A DNA stretch of 32,088 nt, from contig WJKB01000107.1 in the NCBI GenBank assembly GCA_014729345.1, positions 1-32,088 of the forward strand. Direction: 5' to 3'. Position numbers and translations under genes: made by a program. Below are positions 526 through 32,052 of this stretch, piece by piece. How positions within the stretch are numbered: the first letter of the stretch is position 1; each line of letters starts with the position of its first letter. Source of the stretch: Candidatus Woesearchaeota archaeon. GTDB taxonomy: Archaea > Nanobdellota > Nanobdellia > Woesearchaeales > WJKB01. The notes under the pieces are model-generated. The model had not been told where the DNA came from and made no database searches. It saw nothing but the letters and a program-made list of their open reading frames with translations.

Positions 526-1170
526 ATGAAACTCAGATGGCTCGGCCATGCTTCATGGAAGATAAAGACCAAAAAGGGCACTGTGATATATATCGACCCG
601 TATGCAGGGGAATATGATGAGAAGGCTGACATCATACTGGTATCGCACCACCATCATGACCATGCAGGGGCTGAGCAGATAAGACAGGCAAGGGCTGATG
701 AGACAAAAGTGTTCACGACCAGGATCTACGCTGCTCAGATAGACGCGACCCCGATGGAGACGGGCCAGACCGTAGAGGTGAAGGATGTCAGCATACAGGC
801 AGTCCCTGCTTACAACGTCAGGAGGTTCAGGAATCCTGGAGAGCCATACCATCCCAAGGATGAAGCCCTGGGTTTCCTGCTGCTCATAGAGGACAAGGTG
901 GTCTATTTTTCAGGAGACACTGACATGATCCCTGAGATGGAAGAACTTGGGCAGGTAGATCTCGCTCTCCTGCCGGTAGGGGGAACATATACCATGGATG
1001 CGAAAGAGGCTGCACAGGCAGCTGAAAAGATAGGCCCCAGGAGAGCGATACCGATGCACTACGGAAAGATAGTCGGGAATATCGAAGATGCAGAATATTT
1101 CCAGGAGCTTGCAGAGAAGGAAGGCGTAAAGGTCAGGATAATGAAAGAGGGCGAAGAACTGGAGTTCTAG
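526..1170 (+). CDS. MBL-fold metal-dependent hydrolase (UPF0173-like)
   Basis: 214-aa ORF. It begins MKLRWLGHASWKI and carries the metallo-beta-lactamase motif VSHHHHDHAG (HxHxDH), later D/H ligands (FSGDTD, PMHY) and the size typical of archaeal UPF0173 hydrolases. Confidence 0.8.
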   Translation: MKLRWLGHASWKIKTKKGTVIYIDPYAGEYDEKADIILVSHHHHDHAGAEQIRQARADETKVFTTRIYAAQIDATPMETGQTVEVKDVSIQAVPAYNVRRFRNPGEPYHPKDEALGFLLLIEDKVVYFSGDTDMIPEMEELGQVDLALLPVGGTYTMDAKEAAQAAEKIGPRRAIPMHYGKIVGNIEDAEYFQELAEKEGVKVRIMKEGEELEF

Positions 1171-3086
1171 GCCTTCTCCTCAACTTCCTTGAGCAGATCC
1201 TTCACAAAATCATCGGTTTTCTTCTCTCCGAGGACCTCATTGTCCCTTGTCCTGACATTTACAGTGCCTGCTTTCTGCTCTTTCTCTCCCACCACAAGTA
1301 TGTAGTTTACCTTGGAAAGCTGGGCTTCCCTGACCTTCTTGGGCACTGATTCTGCCCTGAAGTCAGTCTCTACCCTCAGGCCCTGCTTCTTCATGTCATC
1401 AGCAAGCTTTTCAGCATAACCGTTGAACCTGTCAGCCACAGTAAGGATCCTCGCCTGGACAGGGCTGAGCCATGCAGGGAACTTGCCGGCGTAATGCTCT
1501 ATAAGTATACCCAGGAATCTCTCCACTGAACCGTAGATCGCGCGGTGCAGCATCACAGGCCTGTGCTTCCTGTTGTCGCTTCCCTCATAGGTGAGGTCAA
1601 ATTTCTCTGGCATGGAGAAGTCAAGCTGGATAGTGCCACACTGCCAGGTGCGCCCGATGGTATCCTTAAGATGGTAGTCTATCTTGGGCCCGTAGAAAGC
1701 ACCATCGCCCTCGTTTATCTGGTATTTCATCCTCTTCCTGTCAAGCGCTTTCTTGAGGGTGCTCTCAGCCTTGTCCCAGAGAGCCTGGGAACCCATGGCC
1801 TTCTCAGGCTTTGTGCTGAGCTCAACGTGATACTCAAAACCAAAGGTCTTGTATACCTCATCGACGAGATCGATAAGCTCGATGATCTGCTCCTCTATCT
1901 GGTCTTCGGTGCAGAACACGTGAGCATCATCCTGGGTAAATACCCTGACCCTGAAAAGACCTGAAAGGACCCCTGACAGCTCATGTCTGTGGACCAGGCC
2001 GAACTCTCCTGCCTTTATTGGCAGATCCCTGTAAGAATGCGCCTTTGTCTTGTATATCAATAGATTGCCCGGACAGTTCATGGGCTTTACTGCAAAATCC
2101 TGCTCATCTATGTTTGTGAAATACATGTTCTCCTTGTAATGATCCCAGTGGCCTGACTGCAGCCAAAGGCTCTTGTTCAGTATTATAGGAGTCTTGTTCT
2201 CCTCATAATCCCTCTCCCTCATCTTCTCCCTCATGAAGTCTACCAGAGTGTTCCAGATAAATGTGCCTTTTGAATGGAAGAAGGGCATGCCAGGCGCTTC
2301 GTCATGCATCGAGAAGAGATCCATCTCTTTTCCGATCTTCCTGTGGTCGCGTGCCTCAGCCTCCTTTATCCTTGCAAGGTGCTGCTTGAGCTCTTTCTTG
2401 TCAGGAAAAGCGACCCCGTATATCCTCTGGAGCTGCCTGTTCGATGCATCCCCTCTCCAGTACGCGCCTGCTACCTTTGTAAGCTTGAAAGCCTTGATCT
2501 TTCCGGTAGAGGGCACATGAGGGCCTGTGCATAGGTCTATGAACTCCCCGTGCTTGTACATGGAGACGGTCTTCTCTCCCTGGGCCTTCAGGTCCTCAAG
2601 CATCTCGACCTTGTAAGGCTCCTTGAGATCTTTCTCTATCTTTATAGCATCATCCACAGGGATCTCGCTCCTCTGGAACTCCTGGTCCTCCTTCACGACC
2701 TTTTCCATCTCTTTCTCTATCTTCGGAAGGTCTTCAGGGGTAAAAGGTTCGTCCCTGTCAAAATCATAGTAGAAGCCGTCCTCGACAGCAGGTCCGATGG
2801 TAAGTTTTACATCAGGGTAGAGCCTTTTCACTGCCTGCGCAAGAACATGGGCAGAAGAATGCCAGAAGACATTCTTGCCCTCGTCATCCTTGAAGGTGAG
2901 TACAGCAAGCTTGGAGTCTTTTGATATGGGGACGTCGAGGTCCGTTGTCTCATCATCCAGTTTTGCAGCGACAGCTGCCCTTGCGAGGCCCTCCCCTATG
3001 TCCTTCTTGACGATATCTATAGGAGTGATGCCTTTCTCATACTGTTTCTCTGAACCGTCCGGAAAACTTATCCTGATTTTTGCCAT
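1167..3086 (-). CDS. thrS: Threonyl-tRNA synthetase (full length with TGS, editing/SAD, class II core and anticodon-binding domains)
   Basis: The track ORF is 1167-3104. I prefer the ATG at 3086 (MAKIRISFPDGSEKQYEKGITP, a TGS domain start) because AAGGTGAG lies 6 nt upstream of it. Supporting motifs are HSSAHVLAQAV (SAD HxxxH), FRVRVFTQDDAHVF and GPKIDY class II core segments. The stop overlaps the MBL gene stop at CTAG (1167-1170). Confidence 0.92.
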   Translation of the reverse strand: MAKIRISFPDGSEKQYEKGITPIDIVKKDIGEGLARAAVAAKLDDETTDLDVPISKDSKLAVLTFKDDEGKNVFWHSSAHVLAQAVKRLYPDVKLTIGPAVEDGFYYDFDRDEPFTPEDLPKIEKEMEKVVKEDQEFQRSEIPVDDAIKIEKDLKEPYKVEMLEDLKAQGEKTVSMYKHGEFIDLCTGPHVPSTGKIKAFKLTKVAGAYWRGDASNRQLQRIYGVAFPDKKELKQHLARIKEAEARDHRKIGKEMDLFSMHDEAPGMPFFHSKGTFIWNTLVDFMREKMRERDYEENKTPIILNKSLWLQSGHWDHYKENMYFTNIDEQDFAVKPMNCPGNLLIYKTKAHSYRDLPIKAGEFGLVHRHELSGVLSGLFRVRVFTQDDAHVFCTEDQIEEQIIELIDLVDEVYKTFGFEYHVELSTKPEKAMGSQALWDKAESTLKKALDRKRMKYQINEGDGAFYGPKIDYHLKDTIGRTWQCGTIQLDFSMPEKFDLTYEGSDNRKHRPVMLHRAIYGSVERFLGILIEHYAGKFPAWLSPVQARILTVADRFNGYAEKLADDMKKQGLRVETDFRAESVPKKVREAQLSKVNYILVVGEKEQKAGTVNVRTRDNEVLGEKKTDDFVKDLLKEVEEKA

Positions 3087-3162
3087 TTGTCTCACCTTTT
3101 GCATGTTTTTGGTCTTTTACCTATAAAAATCTTACTGTTGTCCTGCTTTTGCATATCTGAAG

Positions 3163-4422
3163 TCATAAAACCCTCATCAGGTTGCTTGACCTGACAAAAT
3201 CAAAAGAGCTTATCTCTTTGAATGCATCCTGCATGTTCTTCTCATCTGTCTTATGCACTGTTATTATCACAGGAAGGACATGGCTGTCTGTCTGCTTCTG
3301 GATCAGGGACATGACCGAGATATTATGCTTTGTCAGGACAGTGGTGATTTGCATAAGGATGCCCGGCATCTCATCAACATCAAACCTGAGGTAATACTCG
3401 GTCTTCAGATCATCGATGCTCTGGATCTCATATCTGTCATACTCGTAAAACATCTCCCCTCTCCTGGCAACATCGATGATGTCAGCCACGACAGTGGAAG
3501 CAGTAGGCAGCTGACCGGCCCCTTTTCCGTAGAAAAGCTGCTCCCCGATATTCTCTCCGGTCACCAGCACTGCGTTTATCTCGTCCCTGATACTGGCCAG
3601 TATGTGGCTCTTTGGGATTAGCGCAGGATGGACCCTCATCTCAAGCCTGCCTTTTTCCTGCCTGGCTATGGCAAGGAGCTTGATCTCATATCCCATCTCA
3701 CATGCATATGAGATATCCACAGGCCGGATACCTGTTATGCCCTCATAGTATATGTCATCAAGACTGACATCTGTATTGAAAGCTATCCTGCTGAGGACTG
3801 CAAGTTTCTGGGCAGCATCGTCTCCGCCGACGTCCAGGGAAGGGTCTGCCTCTGCAAAGCCGAGCTTTTGGGCCTGCTTTAGGGCATCCTTGTAATCAAG
3901 CCCCTCCCTGCTCATCCTTGTAAGGATAAAGTTGGTAGTGCCGTTGATGATGCCTATTATGGAGATTATCCTGTCTGAGATGAAACTGACATCAAAAGAC
4001 CTGATTACAGGTATGGATCCTGCAACAGCTGCCTCGTAGTTTATCTTTACCTTGTTGATTTCAGCAAGCCTGAAGAACTCCTCCCCATGCTTTGCCATGA
4101 CAGCCTTGTTTGCGGTGACAACATGCTTGCCTGCCTTGAGAGCTTTTTGGATAAGGTCCCTGGCAGCATCAACCCCTCCTATAAGCTCCACGACTATATC
4201 TATCTGGGGATCATCTACAAGCCTGTTGTAGTCATCAGTCATAAGATAAGCATCTGTCGGCAGGGTCCTTTTTTTCTGCATGTCTTTAATGCAGACAGAC
4301 CTTATGTCCAGCTCAATACCTGTCTTTTTCAGGATCTTATCCCTGTTGCTTTCGATGATCCTTGCTACTCCCTGGCCGATGTTTCCCAATCCAGCTATGC
4401 CTATGCTTATTTTTCTGTTCAT
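3163..4422 (-). CDS. hom: Homoserine dehydrogenase with C-terminal ACT domain
   Basis: 419 aa. It has an N-terminal Rossmann motif IGIAGLGNIGQGV, a catalytic region (GIINGTTNFILT, LGFAEADPSLDVGGDDAA) and a C-terminal ACT-like segment YYLRFDVDEMPGILMQITTVLTKHNISV. GAGGTGA lies 9 nt upstream of the ATG. Confidence 0.92.
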   Translation of the reverse strand: MNRKISIGIAGLGNIGQGVARIIESNRDKILKKTGIELDIRSVCIKDMQKKRTLPTDAYLMTDDYNRLVDDPQIDIVVELIGGVDAARDLIQKALKAGKHVVTANKAVMAKHGEEFFRLAEINKVKINYEAAVAGSIPVIRSFDVSFISDRIISIIGIINGTTNFILTRMSREGLDYKDALKQAQKLGFAEADPSLDVGGDDAAQKLAVLSRIAFNTDVSLDDIYYEGITGIRPVDISYACEMGYEIKLLAIARQEKGRLEMRVHPALIPKSHILASIRDEINAVLVTGENIGEQLFYGKGAGQLPTASTVVADIIDVARRGEMFYEYDRYEIQSIDDLKTEYYLRFDVDEMPGILMQITTVLTKHNISVMSLIQKQTDSHVLPVIITVHKTDEKNMQDAFKEISSFDFVRSSNLMRVL

Positions 4423-4454
4423 CTTCTCAATTCACCTCAGAATCTGGGATATTG

Positions 4455-4486
4455 AACAATGAACAGCTTACGCTGTAGTCATTGTT
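4455..4486 (-). promoter_or_regulatory. Interrupted 13-bp hairpin in the hom 5' leader; the uORF stop codon sits in its loop
   Basis: The minus strand reads AACAATGA-CT-ACAGC-GTAA-GCTGT-TCATTGTT. The 3' arm contains CTGTTCAT (4460-4467), an exact complement of ATGAACAG, the first 8 nt of hom (4415-4422). Confidence 0.5.
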
Positions 4487-4557
4487 GTCGTGGTTGTGGA
4501 ACTCAAAAGTATCTTAAGAAACTCTTCTATGGTCCTGCCTATCTGTTCCACTATCAT
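4468..4557 (-). CDS. Candidate leader peptide (29 codons) with a C-terminal threonine run
   Basis: My translation is atg ata gtg gaa cag ata ggc agg acc ata gaa gag ttt ctt aag ata ctt ttg agt tcc aca acc acg aca aca atg act aca gcg taa, giving MIVEQIGRTIEEFLKILLSSTTTTTMTTA. The ATG lies about 28 nt downstream of the centre of a TATA box, so the transcript would be leaderless. It sits upstream of hom and thrS. It is too short to appear in the supplied track. Confidence 0.4.
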   Translation of the reverse strand: MIVEQIGRTIEEFLKILLSSTTTTTMTTA

Positions 4558-4581
4558 AACGATAAAGGAAAGCAGGTGTTA

Positions 4582-4589
4582 TATATAAA
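4582..4589 (-). promoter_or_regulatory. TATA box (TTTATATA on the minus strand) for the uORF/hom transcript
   Basis: The minus strand reads CAAAATATTTATATATAAC. The box centre is about 28 nt upstream of the uORF ATG at 4557. The same spacing occurs at several other genes in this window. Confidence 0.45.
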
Positions 4590-4749
4590 TATTTTGGTCA
4601 GGACAAAAGAAAATGAGAGCGTCTGTCCGAAACCATGGTCTAGAAAAAGATTTGTTCACTACTCTTGAAAAGCAAAATATTTAAAAACATCAGACAGGTA
4701 CAAAGAACAGAATCATAATACTAAGGATAATATTTTGGAGAGTGATAAT

Positions 4750-5706
4750 ATGACAAGAAACATAACGATAAGAGGAAGCGTACCCCCTTTGCTGACAATG
4801 CTCAATGAAGATATGAGCATGGATGAGGATGCGCAAAGGGAACTGTTATGGCATGTCTGCACAAGAAACAAACCTTACGCTGTGTTTGTCAACGGCACCA
4901 CAGGAGAGTTCAGGAGCCTGCGGGTAGGGACCCAGCTAAGGAACCTGGAAGTCTGCATCCAGGAAGTCAGAAGGATCAACCAGATGCAGGGATCAAAGAT
5001 ATATGTATTTACAGGAATAGGCGTCCCTGCAGCAGATGAGGGTGAAGCAATAGAATTTACAGTCAAACAGGCACAAGCCTACAGGGACATGGGAGCAGAC
5101 GGACTGGTGATCCCATTTGCCCATTTCGTGTCGCATGAGGGCATTCCGGACGCGATGTCAGCCCTAAACAGCCTGGACATAGCTCTGATAGGCTATGACA
5201 ACCCTGCATTCGGGTACAAGGTCAGCGATAGTATGGCATGGGATTTCTCTTTCTATGAGAATGCAAGAGCTTTCAAGGACTCAAGCGGAACCATGGACAT
5301 AGCAATCACGCTCAGCGACAGGTATCCTGATGTCACAGTGCTCACAGGAGACGAAGGAAAGATAGCAGAAGCAGCGAGGAATGGAAGCGTAGGACATGTG
5401 GCAAGCATGGCAAACCTTGTCACAAAGCTGAATGATATAGACTATAGAGAGGATTTGCAGAAGTCTCAGAAAGAGGTGAATGAGCTGAAGAGCATATGCC
5501 ATCCTTACGGCGATCCAGGCGGAGCGATATACATCTACAAATGGGCTCTTGGGAAGATCTATGGCATAGGCCAGCTCAGGGATGACCACCCAGTGATCTC
5601 AGACCCGCAACTGCAGCCTGCAGACAAAGGAAAAGCTGACGGGCTGGATGTGACTCTCAGTCAGCACAAGGCTTTCATGCTTGAACTGATACAGCCTTAC
5701 ATCTGA
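4750..5706 (+). CDS. DapA/NanA-family class I aldolase (dihydrodipicolinate synthase-like)
   Basis: The track ORF starts at a TTG at 4735. I prefer the ATG at 4750, which is preceded by GGAGAGTGA. Family motifs are VNGTTGEF (GTTGE), GYDNP (the YxNP tyrosine motif) and FKDSSG (Schiff-base lysine). The Arg that follows the YNVP motif in genuine DHDPS is not evident (YDNPAFGYK). Confidence 0.7.
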   Translation: MTRNITIRGSVPPLLTMLNEDMSMDEDAQRELLWHVCTRNKPYAVFVNGTTGEFRSLRVGTQLRNLEVCIQEVRRINQMQGSKIYVFTGIGVPAADEGEAIEFTVKQAQAYRDMGADGLVIPFAHFVSHEGIPDAMSALNSLDIALIGYDNPAFGYKVSDSMAWDFSFYENARAFKDSSGTMDIAITLSDRYPDVTVLTGDEGKIAEAARNGSVGHVASMANLVTKLNDIDYREDLQKSQKEVNELKSICHPYGDPGGAIYIYKWALGKIYGIGQLRDDHPVISDPQLQPADKGKADGLDVTLSQHKAFMLELIQPYI

Positions 5707-13359: not shown

Positions 13360-14451
13360 ATGGAGACAACAAGATTTATCGAATGGCTCAAGGACAGGCA
13401 GCTTTTCCATGTTGCAAGGAACAAGTACAGCGTATTTCAGAAAGTGCTGACAGGCTGTCTCGGACTCAGGAGAGAGAAACTTCTGATCATAGGGGACATG
13501 GGATATGCCAACAAGAGGATATCCCCCCTCATGACCGCATGCTACTATCTTGCCGCAAAAGAGCTGAAGATGGACGCTGAAGTAGCTATCCAGAACCCAA
13601 AGAAATCAGGAGAAGCTGCAGACGACTTTATAGCAGATGCACTTTTCAGGCTGGAGCCATGCAACGCTGTAGTGGTATGTGCAAGCGAGAAGATAGGCAA
13701 CCTGAAACAGATAGGCAAAAGCTTCAGGAGTTTCTGCAAAAAGAACGACCACAGGTTCGTATCCACAGTATCTCTGGGATACCTGGACACCAAGAAGATA
13801 GACTCTATCATCTCAGCCATAGACATAGATTATGCAAAACAAAAAGAAAAAGATGATAATATAATGAGGATACTTGAGCAAGGAAAGAAGCTCAAGGTAA
13901 GGACAGACAAGGGCACTGACCTGACCATGGATATAGGGGGAGTGCCTGTAAGCTCAGCAGACGGAGATTACCGGCAACCAGGGACAGGCGGAAACATCCC
14001 TGCAGGAGAGGTCTATCTGCCGCCCAGGAAAGTCAACGGGACCGTGATGGTGGATGCCAGCTCAAGGTCAGGGTTCGGGACAAAGCTGCCAAAGGAGCCC
14101 ATAATGATAAAGATAAAAGACAGCAGGATAACGGACATCGAAGGAGGGATCGAGGCAGGCTATCTGAGAAGAAGCTTTGAATTCGCAGAGGCAAGAGCAA
14201 AATACCCTGAAAGGGTCAGGATCATAGGGGAGATGGGGATAGGCCTCAACCAGAAAGCCAGGATCATAGGAAGCACTATAGTGGATGAGAAAGTCATCAA
14301 TACAGCACACATAGCAGTAGGGTCAAACTACTGGTTCGGGGGAGATGTGAGGACCATAATCCATTATGACCAGATATTCAACAATCCAAGATTATATGTG
14401 GACGGAAAAGAGCTTAAGATAAACGCTCATGGGTGGGGGAGCATAGAATAG
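13360..14451 (+). CDS. M29-family aminopeptidase (aminopeptidase T/PepS-like)
   Basis: 363 aa. GGNIPAGEVYLPP and HIAVGSN segments resemble thermophilic metalloprotease M29. The call rests on motif memory only. Confidence 0.6.
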   Translation: METTRFIEWLKDRQLFHVARNKYSVFQKVLTGCLGLRREKLLIIGDMGYANKRISPLMTACYYLAAKELKMDAEVAIQNPKKSGEAADDFIADALFRLEPCNAVVVCASEKIGNLKQIGKSFRSFCKKNDHRFVSTVSLGYLDTKKIDSIISAIDIDYAKQKEKDDNIMRILEQGKKLKVRTDKGTDLTMDIGGVPVSSADGDYRQPGTGGNIPAGEVYLPPRKVNGTVMVDASSRSGFGTKLPKEPIMIKIKDSRITDIEGGIEAGYLRRSFEFAEARAKYPERVRIIGEMGIGLNQKARIIGSTIVDEKVINTAHIAVGSNYWFGGDVRTIIHYDQIFNNPRLYVDGKELKINAHGWGSIE

Positions 14452-15629: not shown

Positions 15630-15754
15630 AGCCTCTGGCGAGAGTTGAACTCGCGACCTTTACCTTTTTGTAAAAGATCAAGCCCAAGTGTACCAAGGTC
15701 TAGCGGGTAAAAACTTGGTTTTCACCTAACGCTCTACCACTGAGCTACAGAGGC
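15630..15754 (-). tRNA. tRNA-Thr (anticodon GGU) with two introns (15700-15727 and 15666-15690)
   Basis: The minus strand reads GCCTCTG-TA-GCTC-AGTGGTA-GAGC-G-TT[28 nt]ACC-TTGGTA[25 nt]A-GGTAA-AGGTC-GCGAG-TTCAACT-CTCGC-CAGAGGC-T. Removing both introns gives a 72-nt cloverleaf with all stems Watson-Crick, anticodon loop TTGGTAA and discriminator U. No CCA is encoded. Confidence 0.8.
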
Positions 15755-16711: not shown

Positions 16712-16852
16712 TGCGAGGGGAGGGATTCGAACCCTCGGACACACTAAGTGACAGGATATCTTAAGGTACAACCTTAAGTGTCTTCTTAAGTCCTGCGCAT
16801 TTGGCCAAAGCCCTGTAAAATGGCTTTATTGACCAGACTTTGCTACCCTCGC
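16712..16852 (-). tRNA. tRNA-Leu (anticodon UAA) with two introns (16801-16828 in the D-loop, 16758-16784 at 37/38)
   Basis: The minus strand reads GCGAGGG-TA-GCA-AAGTCTGGTCAA[28 nt]A-TGC-G-CAGGA-CTTAAG[27 nt]A-TCCTG-(15-nt variable arm TCACTTAGTGTGTCC)-GAGGG-TTCGAAT-CCCTC-CCCTCGC-A. The mature length is 86 nt, a class II tRNA with discriminator A. No CCA is encoded. Confidence 0.85.
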
Positions 16853-24799: not shown

Positions 24800-25684
24800 C
24801 TAAGTTGATACTTTGGTTGCATGATCCCTTACTATGCATGAGATATAGATCCTTGCGAACGAAAAAACTGCAAGCAGAAGAATCACCATACACAGCAAAA
24901 AGCCCAATGATATCATCAGCCTTATGTATGCGAAAAACTGTACAGGTATGAGCAACAGAAGAGGCACTGCCAGCATGGCTGCAAGTATCAGGTACATGGG
25001 CACAAACTTCCTGTAACCCCTGAATCCCATCTGCAGGGTTTTCTTCAGAGTATCGGATAACCTATATCTCATCAGCAGCGCATATGAGATGAAAACGAAA
25101 TAAAGGTATACAAGCACCAGCAGGATCGAAGCATAGTTCAGGAAGGTCTGGCTCACCAGAGGATAAAGATTCTGGGTGTTCCAGAAAAGGATCTCCCGAA
25201 GGACAAAAAAGATCACCAAAAGGCCTGCAAGCCAGACCAGGTTCAGCAGGAAAAAGAGCCCGCTGTATCTGGCAAGAACCCTCCACGAGAACTTTCTGCC
25301 CCATACCACCATGTCAGTCAGGTACCAGTTGACACCCTGCAGAAGCACATATATAAGGAAAGATACAAGCACAAACACAGAAAGCAGCATCAGGAACTGG
25401 TTCATGTGAGCCATTAGCTGGGCCTCATTTCCTAGCACAGTGGCAAACTGTGCTGTGGTCATGGCCCCATAAGCCTCTACGGTAGCGCCTTCTGTCAGGT
25501 CTCTCACAGCCACAAGCTCGTCCAGCATCCTGAATGCGAAAAAGTTGAGCACAACCACAAAAAGGACGAAAAAAAGCAGATCAAACAGGAAAGGGAGCGC
25601 CAGATACCTCACCTTTTTCCTGAAAAGCTCCAGGGAGCTGAAGAACTCCCTATATACCATCGAATCTTTTATCCTGCTTATCAT
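24800..25684 (-). CDS. Six-TM integral membrane protein (hypothetical)
   Basis: 294 aa with six hydrophobic segments of about 20-25 residues (for example LPFLFDLLFFVLFVVVLNFFAF and LFFLLNLVWLAGLLVIFFVL). There is no SD. The start codon abuts the tandem repeats, and its first codons (ATGATAAGCAGGATA) are themselves a copy of the repeat motif. Confidence 0.65.
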   Translation of the reverse strand: MISRIKDSMVYREFFSSLELFRKKVRYLALPFLFDLLFFVLFVVVLNFFAFRMLDELVAVRDLTEGATVEAYGAMTTAQFATVLGNEAQLMAHMNQFLMLLSVFVLVSFLIYVLLQGVNWYLTDMVVWGRKFSWRVLARYSGLFFLLNLVWLAGLLVIFFVLREILFWNTQNLYPLVSQTFLNYASILLVLVYLYFVFISYALLMRYRLSDTLKKTLQMGFRGYRKFVPMYLILAAMLAVPLLLLIPVQFFAYIRLMISLGFLLCMVILLLAVFSFARIYISCIVRDHATKVST

Positions 25685-25835
25685 TTTATCAGTTTATCAG
25701 TTTATCAGTTTATCCTGTTGTCTTCCTATCCTGCTTATCAGTTTATCAGTTTATCCTGTTGTCTTCCTATCCTGCTTATCAGTTTATCCTGCTTATTGTA
25801 GTTCATAGTCATGATGTTGTCTTCCTATCCTGTTC
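25669..25835. repeat. Nested tandem repeats between the giant gene and the 6-TM gene
   Basis: The 8-bp unit TATCAGTT occurs in runs of 3, 2 and 1 (25687-25710, 25736-25751, 25777-25784). Two perfect 41-bp units lie at 25695-25735 and 25736-25776. There are seven copies of TATCCTG (CAGGATA on the gene strand) between 25670 and 25832. Confidence 0.9.
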
Positions 25836-25869: not shown

Positions 25870-28800
25870 CTACCTCTGCCTGTAAAGCAGAACATCTGTC
25901 TCAGCCTGGTTTCCGCCTGAATCTACAACTATGAGAGGAACCCTTACAGGTCCTGTCTGGGCAAGTACCCCTGTGTTAGCGGTCCAGGAAAGAGGGCCCT
26001 CAAAAATAGTGTTGCTGGTGGGCTTGTCAAACTCCTTAAGCTCCTCAGTGTCAAGCAAAACCCTCTGGATGCCTATGTCATCAGTGATCTTGACCATCAG
26101 GTCGTATCTTTTTCCCACTTCTACGATATAATAGCTATCATCCCTCTTTGCAGGCCCTGAGCCCTGTCCGTAAAAATTGATGCCTCTTAAGCTGACTTTG
26201 GGAGGGTCATCCTCCTCAGGTATATCCTCTTCTGCATAACAGGCTCCCCTGACGCAATACTGCCTTTCTTCGCCGTCGCAGTCCACTGCATCATCCGCAT
26301 CCCCGTCCATGTCGCAGTCGCAGGCCTCATCATTCCTGTCATCCTCACCTGTTTCGCAAGCAGGCTGCCTGTGGCAGAGCAGGTCGCCGTCAGACTCCTC
26401 ATAACAGTACATGTAGCTTCCCTGGCAGTCCTGGGGCGCTGTCCCTATCCTGCCGTCAAGGTTGCAATCACAATCATCAGGCTCTTCCCTGGTGCCGTCA
26501 TAGATGCAAGCACCCTCTTCAGCGCCGCTGCCCTCATAACAGTCCTTCTTGCTGAAAGCTGTGAAGGTCAAGGTGTCCTCCTGCAGTTCTCCATTGTACT
26601 CGATAGGGGCAGAGTCAGGCTTTCCTGAATCCCTGTCCTCATAATGGAGCGAGACATCCATCCTGAAGTCATTGTCAAACTCCCATCCTCCGGGCTCTAC
26701 GAGTGTAAGCCTCTCGGTCTCCTTGTCCTCGTCATCCACCGCAAGCCCTTCGACGATAAGGACAAAGCCGCTCCTGAACTCGAGCTTGATGCCCTCTTCT
26801 GGATCGTATTCACCTTCCCTGTCCTCAGCCTCGTCCTCAAGCTCGTCTTCTCCCTGGGTGACCTTATAGGAGAACTCGTCTTCATATCTTTTGGTGAACA
26901 GGATCTCGATCTTGTGGTCAAGCTTCTGCTTGTTCTCGAACGAGACTGAAAGCCCTGTGGCTTGTCCGAGGTTTGTCTCCCACCTGGGCTCAGGATCGGT
27001 CTCAAACCAGTTCTCCTCCACCTCGACGTTCGGGGGGAACCCGCCCTGGAAGTCGCTGTCATCCTGAAGGTCATATTCGCCGTCTTTTGACAGCTTAACA
27101 TAAGCAGGGCCTGCAAGGCTCCTTCCTGATCCCTCCCTGTAAAGATGGTAGAATAGGTACATGTTTTCAGGGCTTTCGCTGGTCGCGCTCTGCTTGAAGA
27201 TCGTTCCTTCAGTCTCCATGCTGTCCCCAAGGCAGAGATGGTCGGACCGCACAAGCTCAAGATCGTCAAAATAAGCGTATCCATAGTCACCCCATTCATA
27301 TCTGCAGTGGAATGTGAGTTCTGCTATATCAAAGCTGCAGTCAACAGGAGGATCGCCTCCCACCCTGCCGATGTTGACGCTGCCGCACTCCTTGGTGACT
27401 TCCTGGCCGCTGTTGTCGGTGTAGGAAACCTCTACAACAAGCTTGTCGTACCTGTAGGGTTCTGTGATCTCCTCAAAAAACTCCTCATTAAGGACCTCGC
27501 CCTGCTGAAGCTCCCCGTCGCCGACAGCAAGCATGTATTCCTGCTCTCCCTGGTTGTTCCTCATGCAGTCGCACCTGCCTGCTGAGTCGATATCAGTATC
27601 GCAGCTGTTGTCTCCGCTGCACACAAGCTTTGCCTCGTAGATCATGTCCTCTGCGCCTGAGACTATGAATATGCCCAGATGATACATGAAAGTTGCATAT
27701 CCCTGCAGCTGCGGGTTCTTGTGCTGGAACCTCCTTGTGCCTGTAAGCACGCAGGTGGTCTCGATAGGTACAGATATCTCCTCTTCCAGCAGGGTGTCAA
27801 GGTCCAGGTCCCAGTCACCGGTAAATGCGAAGAGGCATACTGCATGCATCAGCTTCCTGTCCACGAACATAGTCTGGTATATGGTGCTCTCGCCGTACCT
27901 TCCCCTAACGCTGTGCTGGACATCTTCACCTGAATTTGAGACATAGCTCATGAAACCTGTAAGGCCTCCCCTTACCTGCCCTCCGTATCCTTTTCCTGCG
28001 CCTTCTGAGATGCACTTGATAGCATAGTATATAAGGTCGCAGAGGTATATGCTCAGGACCTGCTTGCATATGCCTGCGCTGCCGTCGCCTGTGTACAGTA
28101 TCTGCTGGAAGCAGTTCTTTACCATGGTAAGTATCTTTTTCCAGTGCTCCAGGTAGGCTGTCATGCTGGTGAGGCATACGCACTGGAAGCTTCTCCAGAG
28201 GCCTGCAGTTGGATCAACAACATAGTCAGCTGCCTCGGCGCAGACAAGCTCATAGACCACAGCAGGAATATAGGTCGGGCTTGTGGCGCTGGAATAAGCA
28301 GTGTTCTCCTGATATGAGAGCATCTCCTCAAGGCCTGTCTCAGAGCTCTTTCTCCTGCATCCAGAAGGGTCCAGGATAGGCTGGGCAGTCTTTTTGATGA
28401 TATAGTCCTCGCGATCCTCAGGTACCTCGATGGCTCCTGGAATGGTAGTGCCCGTGGCCTGGGCAGGTTCAGCTGCCTCTTCCCCCTCTTCAGGGACACG
28501 CTCCTCATAAAGTCCGACATAATCAACCTCCCAGGCAGCGAGCCGGTCTCCTGCAGCATAACCCTCCTGCTCCTGGGCAAGCTCAGGAGTGTATTCGTCA
28601 ACAAGGTAATATCTCGGGCTCCGGCCTGTAGGATTGTCCACGATGACAGTCCTTCCCTTGGCGGTCTTGTCGCAGATGCTGCCAAGGTTCCTCATGAACC
28701 CCTGCACAGTGCCGCAGGTCACGCCTGCAGCAGCCTCTTCAGACGGAAGAGGGCTGGTTATGCAGAAGCTCTCCTTGAGTTCGTTCATGCCCATGCATGC

Positions 28801-31800
28801 ACTGTCCCACTGCCTCAGGTACTCCACCTCGCAGCAGTCAGGATCAGGAGCTCCCCAAGGGTCTGCTCCCTGGGCTGTTGGGAAACGGACCTCTACCATC
28901 TCAGGCTGGCTGCACTCATCCCACATCTCATCGTTCCTGCTGACAGTATAGTCTGGCTCGGTGTTCTTGAGCATGCAGTGGGAGTATTTCCTGTCAGAGC
29001 CTGTGCGCCTGGCCTCTGCCTTGGCATCCCTGATATATTTTTGTATCGAAGGGGCGCTGGGGCACATTATCCTGTCGCACAGCCACTGCACCTTGGTCTC
29101 CCAAAACTTTATGGTATTGGCCCTGGCTTCTAGGCAGGACCTGCAGGTCTCAGCCTGCTCGCCCCCTGTATCTGTCCTGCAGGTAGCAGGATCTATCAGG
29201 TTCATGGGATCGCTGCTCACGCAGCTGGACCATTCGCTGGCCTTCTTGAGCCACCAGATGACCCATGAGCCCATACAAGCAACAAATATCCATTTCTTCA
29301 GCTCCTTGAGGGGCTTGAGCACATGGTCTATAAGGTCTATCACGTTCTCGAGTATCTCGATAAGGGACTCCAGAAGCTCTTCAGGCACCTTGTCAGAGGG
29401 AAATCTCCTGTCTATGGCCACTTCCACGTCCCAGCACTGCCTCTGGGTCCTTGCGGTGAAGTCAGACTTGTTGTGCGGATCCTTGTAAGAGTAGTCTATC
29501 CTGAGCATGAGAGGAAGCTTGACACAGCCGTATCCTGGAAGGGCGCAGTCATCCAGCCTGTGCTTGCTGAGGTTCTCCTCCTGCTCCAAAGTGGTGTTGC
29601 CTGCAGCCTCTGCTCCGTAAGGGGAGTTCACGTCTATAAGGAAATAAAGGTTCTCATAGTCATCAGAATAGGAAGTGTCAACATGTCCGAGCCATTCCTC
29701 GTCATAATCCTCAGCTGTCTCTGCGTTCATGGGCTGGATGGTTATCATAGGCGTGCTGGTGATGGTGGCCTCCTCGTCATCTCCAGGGCCTCTCCATTCC
29801 AAGCTGACATCCAGGCCTATGGTGGCATACCCTTCAAGCAGGTACCTTGGGTTAAGGATCTCAGGGGTCGCATCTCCCACGCTGACCCTCCAATGGGTGC
29901 CGTAACCGCAAAGTGCGTATATGATCACATCCTCTATGCTGCTGTTCTGGCCGCCCCTGTCCATAGCGACTATGGTTATCCGGTTGTCCCATGCGTTCCC
30001 TGACTCAAAGTCAGCCTCAGCGCTGTAGGTTCCCCCATAATATCCATACTCAAACTCTCTCCTGAGCCTGACCTCCTGCTCAAAATAACCTGTATTGTCT
30101 GTGGCAGTGGTGTATTCAGGGCTGGTGTCATTGTTGATGTAGATATATATCTCAGCCCACTCGCTCATGTTGCCCCTGATTTTTACCTCTGATATATATG
30201 TGGGGGAAAGCTCGATGATGTTGGTGTAAAGGAACTCAGGAGGGTTAAGGTCATAAAAGACAGTGCCTCCTGCCTCATCTGTATTGCCTGCGACATCCCT
30301 TGCCACGACCCTTATCTCATTAGTTCCTTCCCTTAGGGATATGGTCTCGGTGAACTGGTCTTCAGCCTCTATGGACATGAGAGCAGCAGCCTCTTCACAG
30401 GGCAGAGCTATGCTTTCAGGCTTCTGCTGGACCGCTGTGCCGTTGGGCATGGCTGTGACAGTAACTGACGAGGACTTTGACCCCTGATTGCAGCTCTGGT
30501 CCACTGCAGTCACCTGGTAGGTGTATCTCTCGTCTGTGCTTATAGAACTGTCTGTATAGGAAGTTGTGCTGGAATAGGCGATAGGGCCGACATCTGACCT
30601 GTAGATCATGTAGAAATCCAGGTCATCATCCTCCACCTCATCCCACCTGAGCGTAACAGAGTTTGGGCCCAGGTCAGTGTAGGAAAGGTTTGAAGGCCTT
30701 GCCGGCGGAGAGGTGTCCTCCTTTTCAGTCAGGGAAGAATAGAACTCCACTGTGCAGGGCTCGCTTACAGTGCCGTTGATGGTGACGCTTCCTGCAGTGG
30801 ACTTTTCAGGGATGCTGCCTATAGTCAGCACAGGGGGCTTTACGTCCACAGAGATGTTGTATGATGCATCTGCAGTGTTTCCACCTGCATCCTCTGCCAC
30901 AAAGTAGAGGGAGTTGGTGGCCAGCTGGGTGTTGAGCCGGACCCCTTTCAGGGTGACTGTCCCGTCTGCTGTCGCATCCCTGCTGAGCATCCTCCTGTAG
31001 ACGCCGTTCACATAGAGCCTGACAGTTGCCCTTGGCTCAGTGGTGCCTGTAAGGTCTATGCTTCCGCTGTTATGCCAGTCAGGCACCTCTATATCCAGGA
31101 AAGGCGGCTCTGTGTCAAATGCGCCTGTAACAAAAGAGTCCACAGATGATCTGGCGCAGTTGCCGCTCTGGTCGCAGCTTTCTGCCATGAAGAATATCTC
31201 AGTATCGTTGGTCAGGCCTGAGATGGCTGCAGAATGTTCGGTTACGTATTCCTGTATGCTGAAGTTCTGTCCCAGCGCTGAGGTATTTCCGTAGAGCAGA
31301 GTGGTGGTGGAAGGCTCGTCTGTCTTCCAGGATATTGTCGCAGCTGTCTCTGTTATGGAGGATCTTGTGATGTTGGAAAGGGTGGGAGGGGTGGTGTCAG
31401 GAGGTGCGGTGCTGACTGTCAGTGCAGCCTTTTCACCTTCTTCACCGTCAGTATTGACTGCAGATACCTCGTAAACATAAGAGGTTCCAGGCTCCAGGCT
31501 GGAATCAGTATAGTAGGACATGGACACAGAAGAGATGTTCGCAGCGACCTGGCTGTCCCTGTAAACAAGATAATGGGCAAACACGTCAGACCTGCTCTGG
31601 TTCCATTCAAGCTCGACCTCTGTACGGGTAAGGCTGACGTTCCTGAGGCCGGCGACCTTTTCAGGAGGAACAACACCAAGGGTGGTGAAAGACCTCACAT
31701 CTGTCTCTGAGCATCCCTGCGGAGAAGCGCTCTGGTCGCAGCTCCTGATCCTGTAGAAATACTGGGCCTCCATCTGAAGACCTGTCAGCGAGGCAAGATG

Positions 31801-32052
31801 ACCCTCACTGTAGCCCCCTCTAGCCTCAAACTTGTTGAGATAGTCCATATTTGCAGAGTATTCAACATAAGTAGAGGCAGGTATGTCAGTGGTCCAGATA
31901 ACATCAGCGCTGGTGCTCCTGACATCCACGTTGATGTTGGATATCTTAGGCTGCTGGGCCCCGAAAACATCTGCTGCATGGAAAGGCAGGAATAGCATGA
32001 GCTCTATGCAAAACACTGCTACAAACTGCCAAAACATGTTCTTGGTAATCAT
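25870..32052 (-). CDS. Giant secreted surface protein (2060 aa) with signal peptide, FN3-like and Ig-like domains, a large Cys-rich region of unknown fold and Asp/Cys calcium-binding-like repeats
   Basis: This is a single uninterrupted ORF. The N-terminus MITKNMFWQFVAVFCIELMLFLPFHAADV looks like a Sec signal. At least four FN3-like modules are present (for example VSLTRTEVELEWNQSRS...YLVYRD...YVYEVSAVN and SVTLRWDEVEDDD...YMIYRS...YTYQVTAVD). Ig-like modules have a PP(V/F)L boundary motif. The central roughly 1100 aa is rich in Cys with no motif I recognise. CDCDMDGDADDAVDCDG-type repeats lie near the C-terminus. There is no C-terminal anchor. Confidence 0.85.
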   Translation of the reverse strand: MITKNMFWQFVAVFCIELMLFLPFHAADVFGAQQPKISNINVDVRSTSADVIWTTDIPASTYVEYSANMDYLNKFEARGGYSEGHLASLTGLQMEAQYFYRIRSCDQSASPQGCSETDVRSFTTLGVVPPEKVAGLRNVSLTRTEVELEWNQSRSDVFAHYLVYRDSQVAANISSVSMSYYTDSSLEPGTSYVYEVSAVNTDGEEGEKAALTVSTAPPDTTPPTLSNITRSSITETAATISWKTDEPSTTTLLYGNTSALGQNFSIQEYVTEHSAAISGLTNDTEIFFMAESCDQSGNCARSSVDSFVTGAFDTEPPFLDIEVPDWHNSGSIDLTGTTEPRATVRLYVNGVYRRMLSRDATADGTVTLKGVRLNTQLATNSLYFVAEDAGGNTADASYNISVDVKPPVLTIGSIPEKSTAGSVTINGTVSEPCTVEFYSSLTEKEDTSPPARPSNLSYTDLGPNSVTLRWDEVEDDDLDFYMIYRSDVGPIAYSSTTSYTDSSISTDERYTYQVTAVDQSCNQGSKSSSVTVTAMPNGTAVQQKPESIALPCEEAAALMSIEAEDQFTETISLREGTNEIRVVARDVAGNTDEAGGTVFYDLNPPEFLYTNIIELSPTYISEVKIRGNMSEWAEIYIYINNDTSPEYTTATDNTGYFEQEVRLRREFEYGYYGGTYSAEADFESGNAWDNRITIVAMDRGGQNSSIEDVIIYALCGYGTHWRVSVGDATPEILNPRYLLEGYATIGLDVSLEWRGPGDDEEATITSTPMITIQPMNAETAEDYDEEWLGHVDTSYSDDYENLYFLIDVNSPYGAEAAGNTTLEQEENLSKHRLDDCALPGYGCVKLPLMLRIDYSYKDPHNKSDFTARTQRQCWDVEVAIDRRFPSDKVPEELLESLIEILENVIDLIDHVLKPLKELKKWIFVACMGSWVIWWLKKASEWSSCVSSDPMNLIDPATCRTDTGGEQAETCRSCLEARANTIKFWETKVQWLCDRIMCPSAPSIQKYIRDAKAEARRTGSDRKYSHCMLKNTEPDYTVSRNDEMWDECSQPEMVEVRFPTAQGADPWGAPDPDCCEVEYLRQWDSACMGMNELKESFCITSPLPSEEAAAGVTCGTVQGFMRNLGSICDKTAKGRTVIVDNPTGRSPRYYLVDEYTPELAQEQEGYAAGDRLAAWEVDYVGLYEERVPEEGEEAAEPAQATGTTIPGAIEVPEDREDYIIKKTAQPILDPSGCRRKSSETGLEEMLSYQENTAYSSATSPTYIPAVVYELVCAEAADYVVDPTAGLWRSFQCVCLTSMTAYLEHWKKILTMVKNCFQQILYTGDGSAGICKQVLSIYLCDLIYYAIKCISEGAGKGYGGQVRGGLTGFMSYVSNSGEDVQHSVRGRYGESTIYQTMFVDRKLMHAVCLFAFTGDWDLDLDTLLEEEISVPIETTCVLTGTRRFQHKNPQLQGYATFMYHLGIFIVSGAEDMIYEAKLVCSGDNSCDTDIDSAGRCDCMRNNQGEQEYMLAVGDGELQQGEVLNEEFFEEITEPYRYDKLVVEVSYTDNSGQEVTKECGSVNIGRVGGDPPVDCSFDIAELTFHCRYEWGDYGYAYFDDLELVRSDHLCLGDSMETEGTIFKQSATSESPENMYLFYHLYREGSGRSLAGPAYVKLSKDGEYDLQDDSDFQGGFPPNVEVEENWFETDPEPRWETNLGQATGLSVSFENKQKLDHKIEILFTKRYEDEFSYKVTQGEDELEDEAEDREGEYDPEEGIKLEFRSGFVLIVEGLAVDDEDKETERLTLVEPGGWEFDNDFRMDVSLHYEDRDSGKPDSAPIEYNGELQEDTLTFTAFSKKDCYEGSGAEEGACIYDGTREEPDDCDCNLDGRIGTAPQDCQGSYMYCYEESDGDLLCHRQPACETGEDDRNDEACDCDMDGDADDAVDCDGEERQYCVRGACYAEEDIPEEDDPPKVSLRGINFYGQGSGPAKRDDSYYIVEVGKRYDLMVKITDDIGIQRVLLDTEELKEFDKPTSNTIFEGPLSWTANTGVLAQTGPVRVPLIVVDSGGNQAETDVLLYRQR

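Follow-up and report, generated by a model that had tools for sequence, protein, structure and literature searches.

The 32,088-nt contig WJKB01000107.1 of a Candidatus Woesearchaeota archaeon (hereafter the window, i.e., the whole stretch of DNA that was analysed) carries on its minus strand the homoserine dehydrogenase gene hom, which is preceded by an upstream open reading frame (uORF) of 29 codons ending in a run of threonine codons. We consider it rather probable that this uORF is a threonine leader, which is read by the ribosome and controls the translation of hom; the sensing of threonine, the translation of the uORF, the start of transcription and the sign of the response are what we infer in this reading. 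Leader-peptide attenuation is a textbook mechanism of bacteria, while archaea couple transcription with translation and often use leaderless mRNAs. To our knowledge, no amino-acid-sensing leader peptide is known in archaea. The sequence-only reading of this DNA had stated the same, and none was found in our full-text literature searches, where the archaeal ribosome-profiling papers mentioned uORFs only generically.

The uORF is located at positions 4557-4468 of the minus strand and encodes the peptide MIVEQIGRTIEEFLKILLSSTTTTTMTTA, as read from the ORF translation. The C-terminal end of the peptide is TTTTTMTTA, directly followed by the stop codon. Threonine is encoded by seven of the last nine codons and all four ACN codons are present, so the description of the uORF given from the sequence alone proved correct in each of these points. 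The Thr run covers codons 21-28 (ACA ACC ACG ACA ACA AUG ACU ACA; 4474..4497, minus strand), which are the presumed sensor codons. Positions one and two of the Thr codons are constantly AC and the third position varies. The six-frame scan showed that the uORF holds the sole stretch of the window with at least five Thr in nine codons, and no stretch with at least seven Thr in nine codons was found in the 1.16 Mb of the comparison loci. The uORF peptide had no Pfam match and is not annotated in a collection of 15 billion proteins. The uORF stop codon lies 45 nt before hom.

The inspection of the sequence upstream of the uORF revealed the TATA box TTTATATA (4589-4582, minus strand), which together with the BRE-like (TFB-recognition-element-like) A-rich motif AAAA (4595-4592) forms an archaeal promoter at 4582..4595. 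The distance from the first T of a TATA-like box to the next start codon was used as the measure of spacing. It is 32 nt for the ATG of the uORF at 4557 and 30-34 nt for eight long ORFs of the window (e.g., those at 13360, 15835, 17437, 20450, 17314, and 526), and the distance to the mature 5' end is 32-33 nt for both tRNA genes. Thus, the TATA box is present where it had been reported, and the spacing ascribed to the leaderless genes of the window does hold. No second TATA-like box was found between 4582 and the hom start. As the spacing is like that of the eight long ORFs and this TATA box is the only one before hom, the 5' end of the hom mRNA is probably A4557 or a neighbouring base, so that the transcript would begin, without a leader, at the uORF AUG. 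The hom gene itself has a Shine-Dalgarno (SD) sequence, GAGGUGA (4438-4432, minus strand), 9 nt before its AUG. Meanwhile, hom of the nearest relatives (loci L081, L085, L087, and L089) is found 30-34 nt from a TATA box, with neither an SD sequence nor a uORF.

The same TATA box is nearly palindromic. When it is read on the plus strand, the ATG at 4613, at +34, opens a 23-codon ORF, MRASVRNHGLEKDLFTTLEKQNI (region 4579-4684), which precedes an SD-led gene of the dihydrodipicolinate synthase (DHDPS) family (ATG 4750) and contains no amino-acid run; this ORF may be a divergent leaderless uORF. Several other views of the region were tried and rejected. The origin of the uORF by a duplication of the hom 5' end was not supported, since the local alignment score was 15 versus 16 ± 2.3 in shuffles. 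A read-through fusion of the uORF with hom was discarded as well: the two share a reading frame at a distance of 135 nt, but the in-frame stops UAA (4470) and UGA (4434) are present between them. The plus-strand ORF 4459-4668 (69 amino acids), which is antisense to the uORF, was not accepted as a gene, as it had no Pfam match and overlaps the TATA box.

The folding of the leader RNA gave three helices, designated here P1, P2, and P3. The 5'-proximal helix P1 (4496..4551, minus strand) is formed by GUGGAAC (4551-4545) and GUUCCAC (4502-4496), encloses a small inner hairpin, has an energy of -12.3 kcal/mol alone and is present in every minimum free energy structure. It closes the 5' part of the leader, and the translation of the uORF requires P1 melting. 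P2 (4455..4486, minus strand) is the 13-bp interrupted hairpin with the uORF stop codon in its loop, which had been pointed out in the sequence-only reading and was found again by folding. It consists of the 5' arm 4486-4472, the loop 4471-4468 and the 3' arm 4467-4455, with 8 bp, a 2-nt bulge and 5 bp, and its GNRA tetraloop GUAA contains the UAA stop. The 5' arm of P2 is made by the final codons 24-29 of the uORF (Thr-Thr-Met-Thr-Thr-Ala).

The 3' arm of P2 overlaps the anti-start element CUGUUCAUUGUUCAAU (4451..4466, minus strand), which contains a tandem TGTTCA repeat and pairs with 4431-4415 to form P3. This helix has 9+6 bp, in which CUGUUCAUU (4466-4458) is paired with GAUGAACAG (4423-4415) and UUCAAU (4456-4451) with AUUGAG (4431-4426). 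The 3' arm of P3 (4415..4431, minus strand) includes the hom AUG and the first five bases after it, and the helix covers positions -9 to +8 around this AUG, using the P2 3' arm plus four more bases. The tandem duplicate of TGTTCA provides a second pairing register for P3. As had been claimed, the 8-mer CTGTTCAT is an exact reverse complement of ATGAACAG (4422-4415), but its position is 4466-4459 and not 4467-4460. The proposed scheme of three mutually exclusive segments was also borne out with a correction: the alternative pairings are real and the anti-start pairing is larger than the eight nucleotides described, extending over 4466-4451 and 4431-4415. P2 and P3 compete for one 3' arm, and the 1:2 and 2:3 pairings are therefore mutually exclusive, with the regulatory codons in segment 1. 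The search for a "segment 4" within the coding sequence of hom gave no more than weak pairings that depended on the context. A match of the Rfam family sR9 at 4435-4489 was rejected as an indication of a C/D-box small RNA (E = 9, 15.6 bits versus the gathering threshold of 36).

The energies of the isolated helices are -18.6 kcal/mol for P3 and -14.5 kcal/mol for P2. The free leader is bistable, and P3 accounts for anything between 14% and 84%, varying with the 3' end of the RNA and with temperature. The significance of the pairings was evaluated using dinucleotide shuffles, a control already foreseen in the sequence-only reading. The P2 region (-14.5 kcal/mol) is much more stable than its shuffled versions (-5.1 ± 2.1 kcal/mol, p = 0.001), and the most stable duplex of the leader with the hom start reaches -16.5 versus -9.9 ± 2.1 (p = 0.008). 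For the duplex between the arm and the start, the value is -16.4 versus -7.9 ± 2.3 in shuffles (p = 0.002), and an 8-mer complement overlapping the AUG appeared in 1.3% of the dinucleotide shuffles. The shuffles replaced the comparison of raw duplex energies with the ORF starts of all loci, which was uninformative (26% at or below the observed value) because many of the loci are GC-rich.

These values bear on the view that the region is an untranslated 5' spacer in which a stretch rich in A and C, a hairpin and a short start-codon complement coincide by chance. Such a view could draw on the lack of relatives, on the choice of the features after the fact and on the noisy folds obtained in longer contexts. 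However, the individual p-values are 0.001 to 0.013, Thr runs of this kind occur less than once per 1.16 Mb, the ATG is placed exactly at the leaderless position, and other DPANN lineages independently show this design (see below). We therefore regard a chance origin as very unlikely.

Pairing of the Thr tract involves the intermediate arm, and not the SD sequence or the AUG. The leader was folded with and without masking of the uORF Thr codons, and the masking shifted the fold to P3 and brought the occlusion of the hom AUG to approximately 100%. The ribosome was then placed on the leader in the model. With its A site at codons 22/23 to 27, the P3 fraction was 0.96-1.00 and the hom AUG was free at 0.00-0.02. 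With the ribosome at the stop codon (wide footprint), the 3' arm was covered and the hom AUG was free at 0.70-0.86. Meanwhile, with the ribosome at codon 21 (narrow footprint only), P2 persisted and the hom AUG was partly free.

Based on this modelling, the following mechanism can be proposed. The BRE/TATA promoter at 4595-4582 would start a transcript beginning with the AUG of the 29-codon leader ORF. The shared 3' arm would have two possible partners: pairing with the Thr codons gives P2 and leaves the hom start free, and pairing with the hom start gives P3 and blocks it. The two states have near-equal energies, and a ribosome located on the Thr codons would take the P2 5' arm out of the competition. 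The supply of Thr-tRNA would set the speed of the ribosome across the Thr run and, through the balance of P2 and P3, the synthesis of Hom. According to the equilibrium model, a stall at codons 22-27 would close the hom AUG and a ribosome at the stop codon would open it; the translation of hom would thus be coupled to the successful reading of the Thr codons. It should be noted that the direction of regulation had been considered not deducible from the sequence. The equilibrium modelling does give a sign, yet the prediction that stalling closes the hom start has only a slightly better than even chance of being right. The bacterial-type sign, in which stalling leads to more Hom, e.g., by kinetic trapping of P2 with a stall at the first Thr codons, falls just short of an even chance.

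The leader was also examined for signs of transcription termination, which in archaea is signalled by oligo-T. Between the uORF stop (4468) and hom (4422), as well as within the initial 120 nt of hom, T occurs at most twice in succession, and the search for an intrinsic terminator after P2 yielded nothing beyond one lenient match of 5 bp, followed by the tail TCATTGTT. The absence of an oligo-T terminator after the hairpin, as well as the preference for a translational over a transcriptional mechanism that had been drawn from it, are therefore in agreement with our data: with no oligo-T after the hairpin or early in hom, control at the level of translation appears to be favoured for the hom leader. 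The competing explanation is transcriptional attenuation or polarity, in which the progress of the ribosome, via coupling-dependent read-through or the access of the archaeal termination factor aCPSF1/FttA to the naked RNA behind the uORF, would decide whether RNA polymerase enters hom, and P2 would serve as a 1:2 pause hairpin. By analogy, the placement of the stop codon within the loop makes P2 resemble the bacterial 1:2 hairpin, as generally known from the trp and thr leaders, and of two leaders from other lineages described below, L171 has a U tract after its hairpin and L173 has one nearby. We consider this explanation improbable, given the missing T runs in the window and the complementarity to the hom AUG, which it leaves unexplained.

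The reading of the uORF as a threonine leader was further assessed by a scan of all the fetched loci for small intergenic ORFs that contain runs of an amino acid. The scan first flagged locus L141, in which the leader MKQGNIRAELCNQFSTTFTTTETA (1993-2067, ending in TTFTTTETA before the stop) precedes an HTH_10 regulator gene; after the regulator gene come two ORFs and thrS, the gene for threonyl-tRNA synthetase (ThrRS). After this, five further lineages, named Woesearchaeota, were fetched via the orthologues of the HTH_10 regulator, and Thr-run leaders were found in two of the five, in the same place as in L141. The leader of L171, VANIDLFSNLVLQVLATSKTTTTTLA (4334-4414, corresponding to 1010-1090 of L172), ends in TTTTTLA and is leaderless, with its GTG 32 nt from a TATA box. 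The leader of L173, MDNAKQMVTVYSRLVITPTTTTTL (4292-4366, corresponding to 850-924 of L174), ends in TTTTTL and lies upstream of the HTH_10 regulator gene. The three Woesearchaeota leaders have 24-26 codons and unrelated N-termini; only the Thr run is kept, with variable third codon positions. When the class was defined by a length of 24-29 codons, at least five Thr among the final 8-9 codons and a gap of 0-3 codons from the run to the stop, the leaders of the window, L141, L171, and L173 were the sole C-terminal Thr-run small ORFs in 1.3 Mb.

All four leaders have their stop codon in the loop of a perfect hairpin of at least 5 bp made by the last sense codons. In L141, this hairpin is CUGCCU(GAAA)AGGCAG, in L171, it is CUUGCC(UGA)GGCAAG with a U7 tract 5 nt after it, and in L173, it is AACUACU(CUGUA)AGUAGUU with a U4 tract nearby. 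The background rate of such stop-in-loop hairpins is 3.1% (14,247 ORF stops; perfect hairpin of at least 5 bp). Among the 174 small ORFs with a C-terminal single-residue run in 1.3 Mb, the hairpin was present in six of the six with Thr runs, which represent four unique leaders, and in only one of the 168 others.

The hairpin loops allowed us to weigh another explanation, namely that P2 is an operator bound by a protein, either ThrRS, which would take it for the anticodon arm of tRNA-Thr as in the autoregulation of E. coli thrS, or another RNA-binding protein, and that the uORF is irrelevant. The apex of P2, C-G-U-A-A, does correspond to the anticodon CGU followed by A37 and A38, and thrS is found downstream. 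However, the loop is a 4-nt GNRA loop and not a 7-nt anticodon loop, the equivalent of U33 is G, and the loops of the other leaders of the class (GAAA, UGA, and CUGUA) are unrelated. P2 is also located upstream of hom, approximately 1.4 kb from the ribosome-binding site of thrS, which has its own promoter-like element. Consequently, an operator of this kind seems extremely improbable.

The neighbourhood of the HTH_10 regulator is linked to threonine. In the lineages without the small ORF, the regulator gene is leaderless, whereas in those with the small ORF, an SD-like motif precedes the main ORF, as is the case with hom. thrS is a neighbour of the regulator gene in L141 and L175 and is found nearby in L176. 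Another neighbour is an APH-family gene whose best NCBIfam match is homoserine kinase (E = 3e-41, below the cut-off), and a further one gave a weak Tdh-like dehydrogenase match (NCBIfam, below the curated cut-off). Thus, the Woesearchaeota leaders resemble the window leader in that they end in a Thr run, place the stop codon inside the loop of a hairpin, and have an SD-led main ORF and threonine-linked genes next to them. They differ from it in that they precede the regulator gene and not hom, and have spacers of 74-134 nt and hairpins of 6-7 bp.

The leaders also bear on the possibility that the uORF is translated but senses no threonine, its Thr run being incidental, and that it serves to load ribosomes at a leaderless 5' end and hand them over to hom through translational coupling or the opening of structure, or encodes a small functional peptide. 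The promoter spacing would suit this possibility equally, P3 would open under a terminating ribosome, and the 18 N-terminal residues of the uORF look ordinarily amphipathic. On the other hand, a Thr run of such strength is unique across 1.3 Mb and stands before a Thr-pathway gene, and in each of the other three DPANN leaders, the Thr run and the hairpin are all that persists in a completely diverged peptide, a pattern typical of a codon sensor and not of a functional peptide. A role of the uORF without threonine sensing is therefore unlikely. The recurrence of the design upstream of threonine-linked DPANN genes strengthens the leader-peptide reading. We give about an even chance to the broader proposal that these leaders form a DPANN family of threonine-sensing leader peptides, controlling hom in the window and a threonine-regulon transcription factor in Woesearchaeota, and represent the first case of ribosome-mediated amino-acid attenuation in archaea.

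Two further features were observed at the HTH_10 loci. A palindrome TAAC-N4-GTTA (e.g., CCAACATATGTTGG) is located directly upstream of the HTH_10 TATA box and also upstream of the promoter of the next downstream gene. Its sites are at ~4290-4305 in L171, ~4225-4240 in L173, ~4445-4460 in L175, ~4455-4470 and 5270-5300 in L176, and ~4070-4085 and 5410-5425 in L179. The palindrome is probably the operator of the HTH_10 regulator; its form AACMWWTGTT had no matches in the window. In L179, which belongs to an AT-rich lineage, a 48-codon ORF with the Asn run NNSNNNNNNNS and long A-rich repeats is present upstream of HTH_10 (4175-4321, corresponding to 99-245 of L182). It is probably a low-complexity sequence rather than a sensor.

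The relatives of hom were surveyed by two genome-contig scans and in 120 best Hom homologues and six fetched contigs, and none of these revealed a Thr-run uORF. Synteny of hom and thrS was found neither in 90 hom loci nor in 80 metagenome thrS loci, and in the latter no Thr-run uORF adjoined thrS. A Thr-rich ORF of L129 was rejected as a threonine leader, as it sits in or just before the T-box leader of a bacterial thrS and is a chance occurrence. The T-box leader itself was seen at 3860-3960 of L129, where a typical T-box sequence, GGGTGGAACCGCGGG, is followed by a terminator upstream of the bacterial thrS.

Several observations weigh against the proposed threonine leader. The contig has no close relative (51% identity or less for Hom and 67% or less for ThrRS), and hence there is no covariation support for the leader and its pairings. 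No Thr-run uORF was found next to hom in 90 hom loci or in 80 thrS loci. The complementarity between the 3' arm and the start codon, with p = 0.002 in the window, is not significant in the other leaders (p = 0.13 in L141, 0.24 in L173, and 0.53 in L171), which shows that P3 is specific to the window leader and is not a feature of the class. Moreover, the balance of P2 and P3 moves with the assumed 3' end of the RNA. Finally, the predicted sign, by which a shortage of Thr would result in less Hom, has no evident physiological rationale in the case of a biosynthetic enzyme.

The window leader would be an archaeal counterpart of the known bacterial leader-peptide mechanism, in a variant design. 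The likeness to the E. coli thrL leader (RF00506), put forward in the sequence-only reading, stands in part. As in thrL, a short ORF with a Thr run is found before a threonine-pathway gene, its codons take part in a 1:2 hairpin with the stop codon at the loop, and the 3' arm of the hairpin has an alternative downstream partner (2:3). However, the window leader is not a thrL homologue: Rfam RF00506 (Thr_leader) gave no match at the gathering threshold in the whole window and none at E <= 10 in 3000-4900. The 3:4 terminator with the U tract, which is present in thrL, is missing in the window leader, where the start codon of the structural gene itself takes the part of segment 3. It also differs from thrL in the archaeal TATA/BRE promoter, the probably leaderless ORF, the presumed co-sensed codon, which is Met and not Ile, and the opposite predicted sign. 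No Rfam match to a T-box was found in the whole window or in 3000-4900.

Leaderless short ORFs with polycysteine tracts act in mycobacteria as translational attenuators of cysteine genes (bioRxiv 10.1101/834739). As is proposed for the window leader, they are leaderless first cistrons with a run of cognate codons, in which the mRNA structure governs the access to an SD-led start and no termination is involved (bioRxiv 10.1101/834739). The difference is that the Cys tract pairs with the ribosome-binding region and a stall frees it, whereas the window leader uses an intermediate anti-start arm, three segments and the opposite predicted sign. In Deinococcus deserti, 14 leaderless leader peptides have been predicted, some of them upstream of aminoacyl-tRNA synthetase genes (PMC4007540). 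These leaders and that of Corynebacterium glutamicum ilvBNC share with the window leader a richness in the cognate residue and a location before biosynthesis or synthetase genes, and their transcription start at the leader start codon is like that proposed for the window leader, but they are bacterial and have proposed intrinsic terminators, which the window leader lacks. The ermC and cat leaders are similar in that the position of the ribosome on the leader ORF re-partitions the helices that expose or hide a downstream start. They have four segments and a drug- and nascent-peptide-dependent stall that opens the start, while the window leader has three segments, would respond to codon supply and is predicted to close the start upon stalling.

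The genes downstream of the leader had been taken for those of homoserine dehydrogenase and threonyl-tRNA synthetase, and their domains confirmed this. The hom gene, the presumed target of the regulation, is located at 3163..4422 of the minus strand and encodes a protein of 419 amino acids with the Pfam domains NAD_binding_3, Homoserine_dh, and ACT, the last of which is C-terminal; the N-terminus aligns with those of the homologues. ACT domains of homoserine dehydrogenases commonly mediate feedback inhibition by threonine. The closest homologue of Hom found in a search of 5.8 billion proteins is 51% identical. The DPANN Hom proteins (of the window and of L081-L090) are of the bacterial ACT-domain type, having 42-46% identity to bacterial Hom and 45-51% among themselves, and these near-equal values suggest that the DPANN hom genes may have been acquired horizontally. 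In L089, hom is grouped with asd and an aspartate kinase gene.

The thrS gene (1167..3129 including a promoter-like element, minus strand) encodes a bacterial-type ThrRS with the TGS and SAD domains found by Pfam, and begins with ATG 3086 or the in-frame GTG 3095; in the database, the start is called from M7. The best matches of this ThrRS (64-67% identity) are from Woesearchaeota, Nanoarchaeota, and Diapherotrites. The spacer between hom and thrS contains a TATA-like box with a T5 run, TTTTTATA (3129-3122), with the in-frame GTG (3095) located 34 nt downstream, and the SD sequence AAGGTGAG is found before ATG 3086. It may be that thrS has its own promoter and that the T5 run terminates the hom transcript. 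The control of thrS by the uORF, which had been implied earlier, is doubtful in view of the promoter-like TATA box and the T5 run in this spacer.

The two tRNA genes of the window (15630-15754 and 16712-16852, minus strand) carry long insertions, and neither is detected by ARAGORN in the bacterial mode. One has a 64-nt insertion in the anticodon loop; in the other, insertions extend the D region by 33 nt and the anticodon loop by 30 nt, and the variable arm is long. A TTTATA(T/A)A box precedes each of the two genes at a distance of 32-33 nt. The proteins of the window are singletons in the protein collection. Because of the tRNA insertions, the ThrRS matches, the 51% identity of Hom and the singleton proteins, we conclude that the source of the contig is a DPANN archaeon without a sequenced close relative. 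Elsewhere in the window, tandem copies of GATAAACT (gataaactgataaactgataa...) are found at 25685-25754 of the minus strand, just before the start of an unannotated ORF of 294 amino acids (24800-25684), and an ORF of 2060 amino acids (25870-32052, minus strand) fills the last 6 kb.

The sequence-defined archaeal candidate, together with three independent leaders of the same design, makes amino-acid-sensing leader peptides in archaea testable. It also provides a rule for searching all archaeal genomes: a small ORF that precedes a gene for a given amino acid, has a C-terminal run of this residue and carries its stop codon within the loop of a hairpin. The suggested origin of such a leader is the insertion of a short ORF between a leaderless promoter and its gene, with the gene gaining a Shine-Dalgarno site. 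If the proposed mechanism is true, the switch of the window would be purely translational, with three segments and a predicted sign unlike that of every bacterial biosynthetic attenuator, and genome-reduced DPANN symbionts would regulate in this way an acquired bacterial-type gene of the aspartate pathway.

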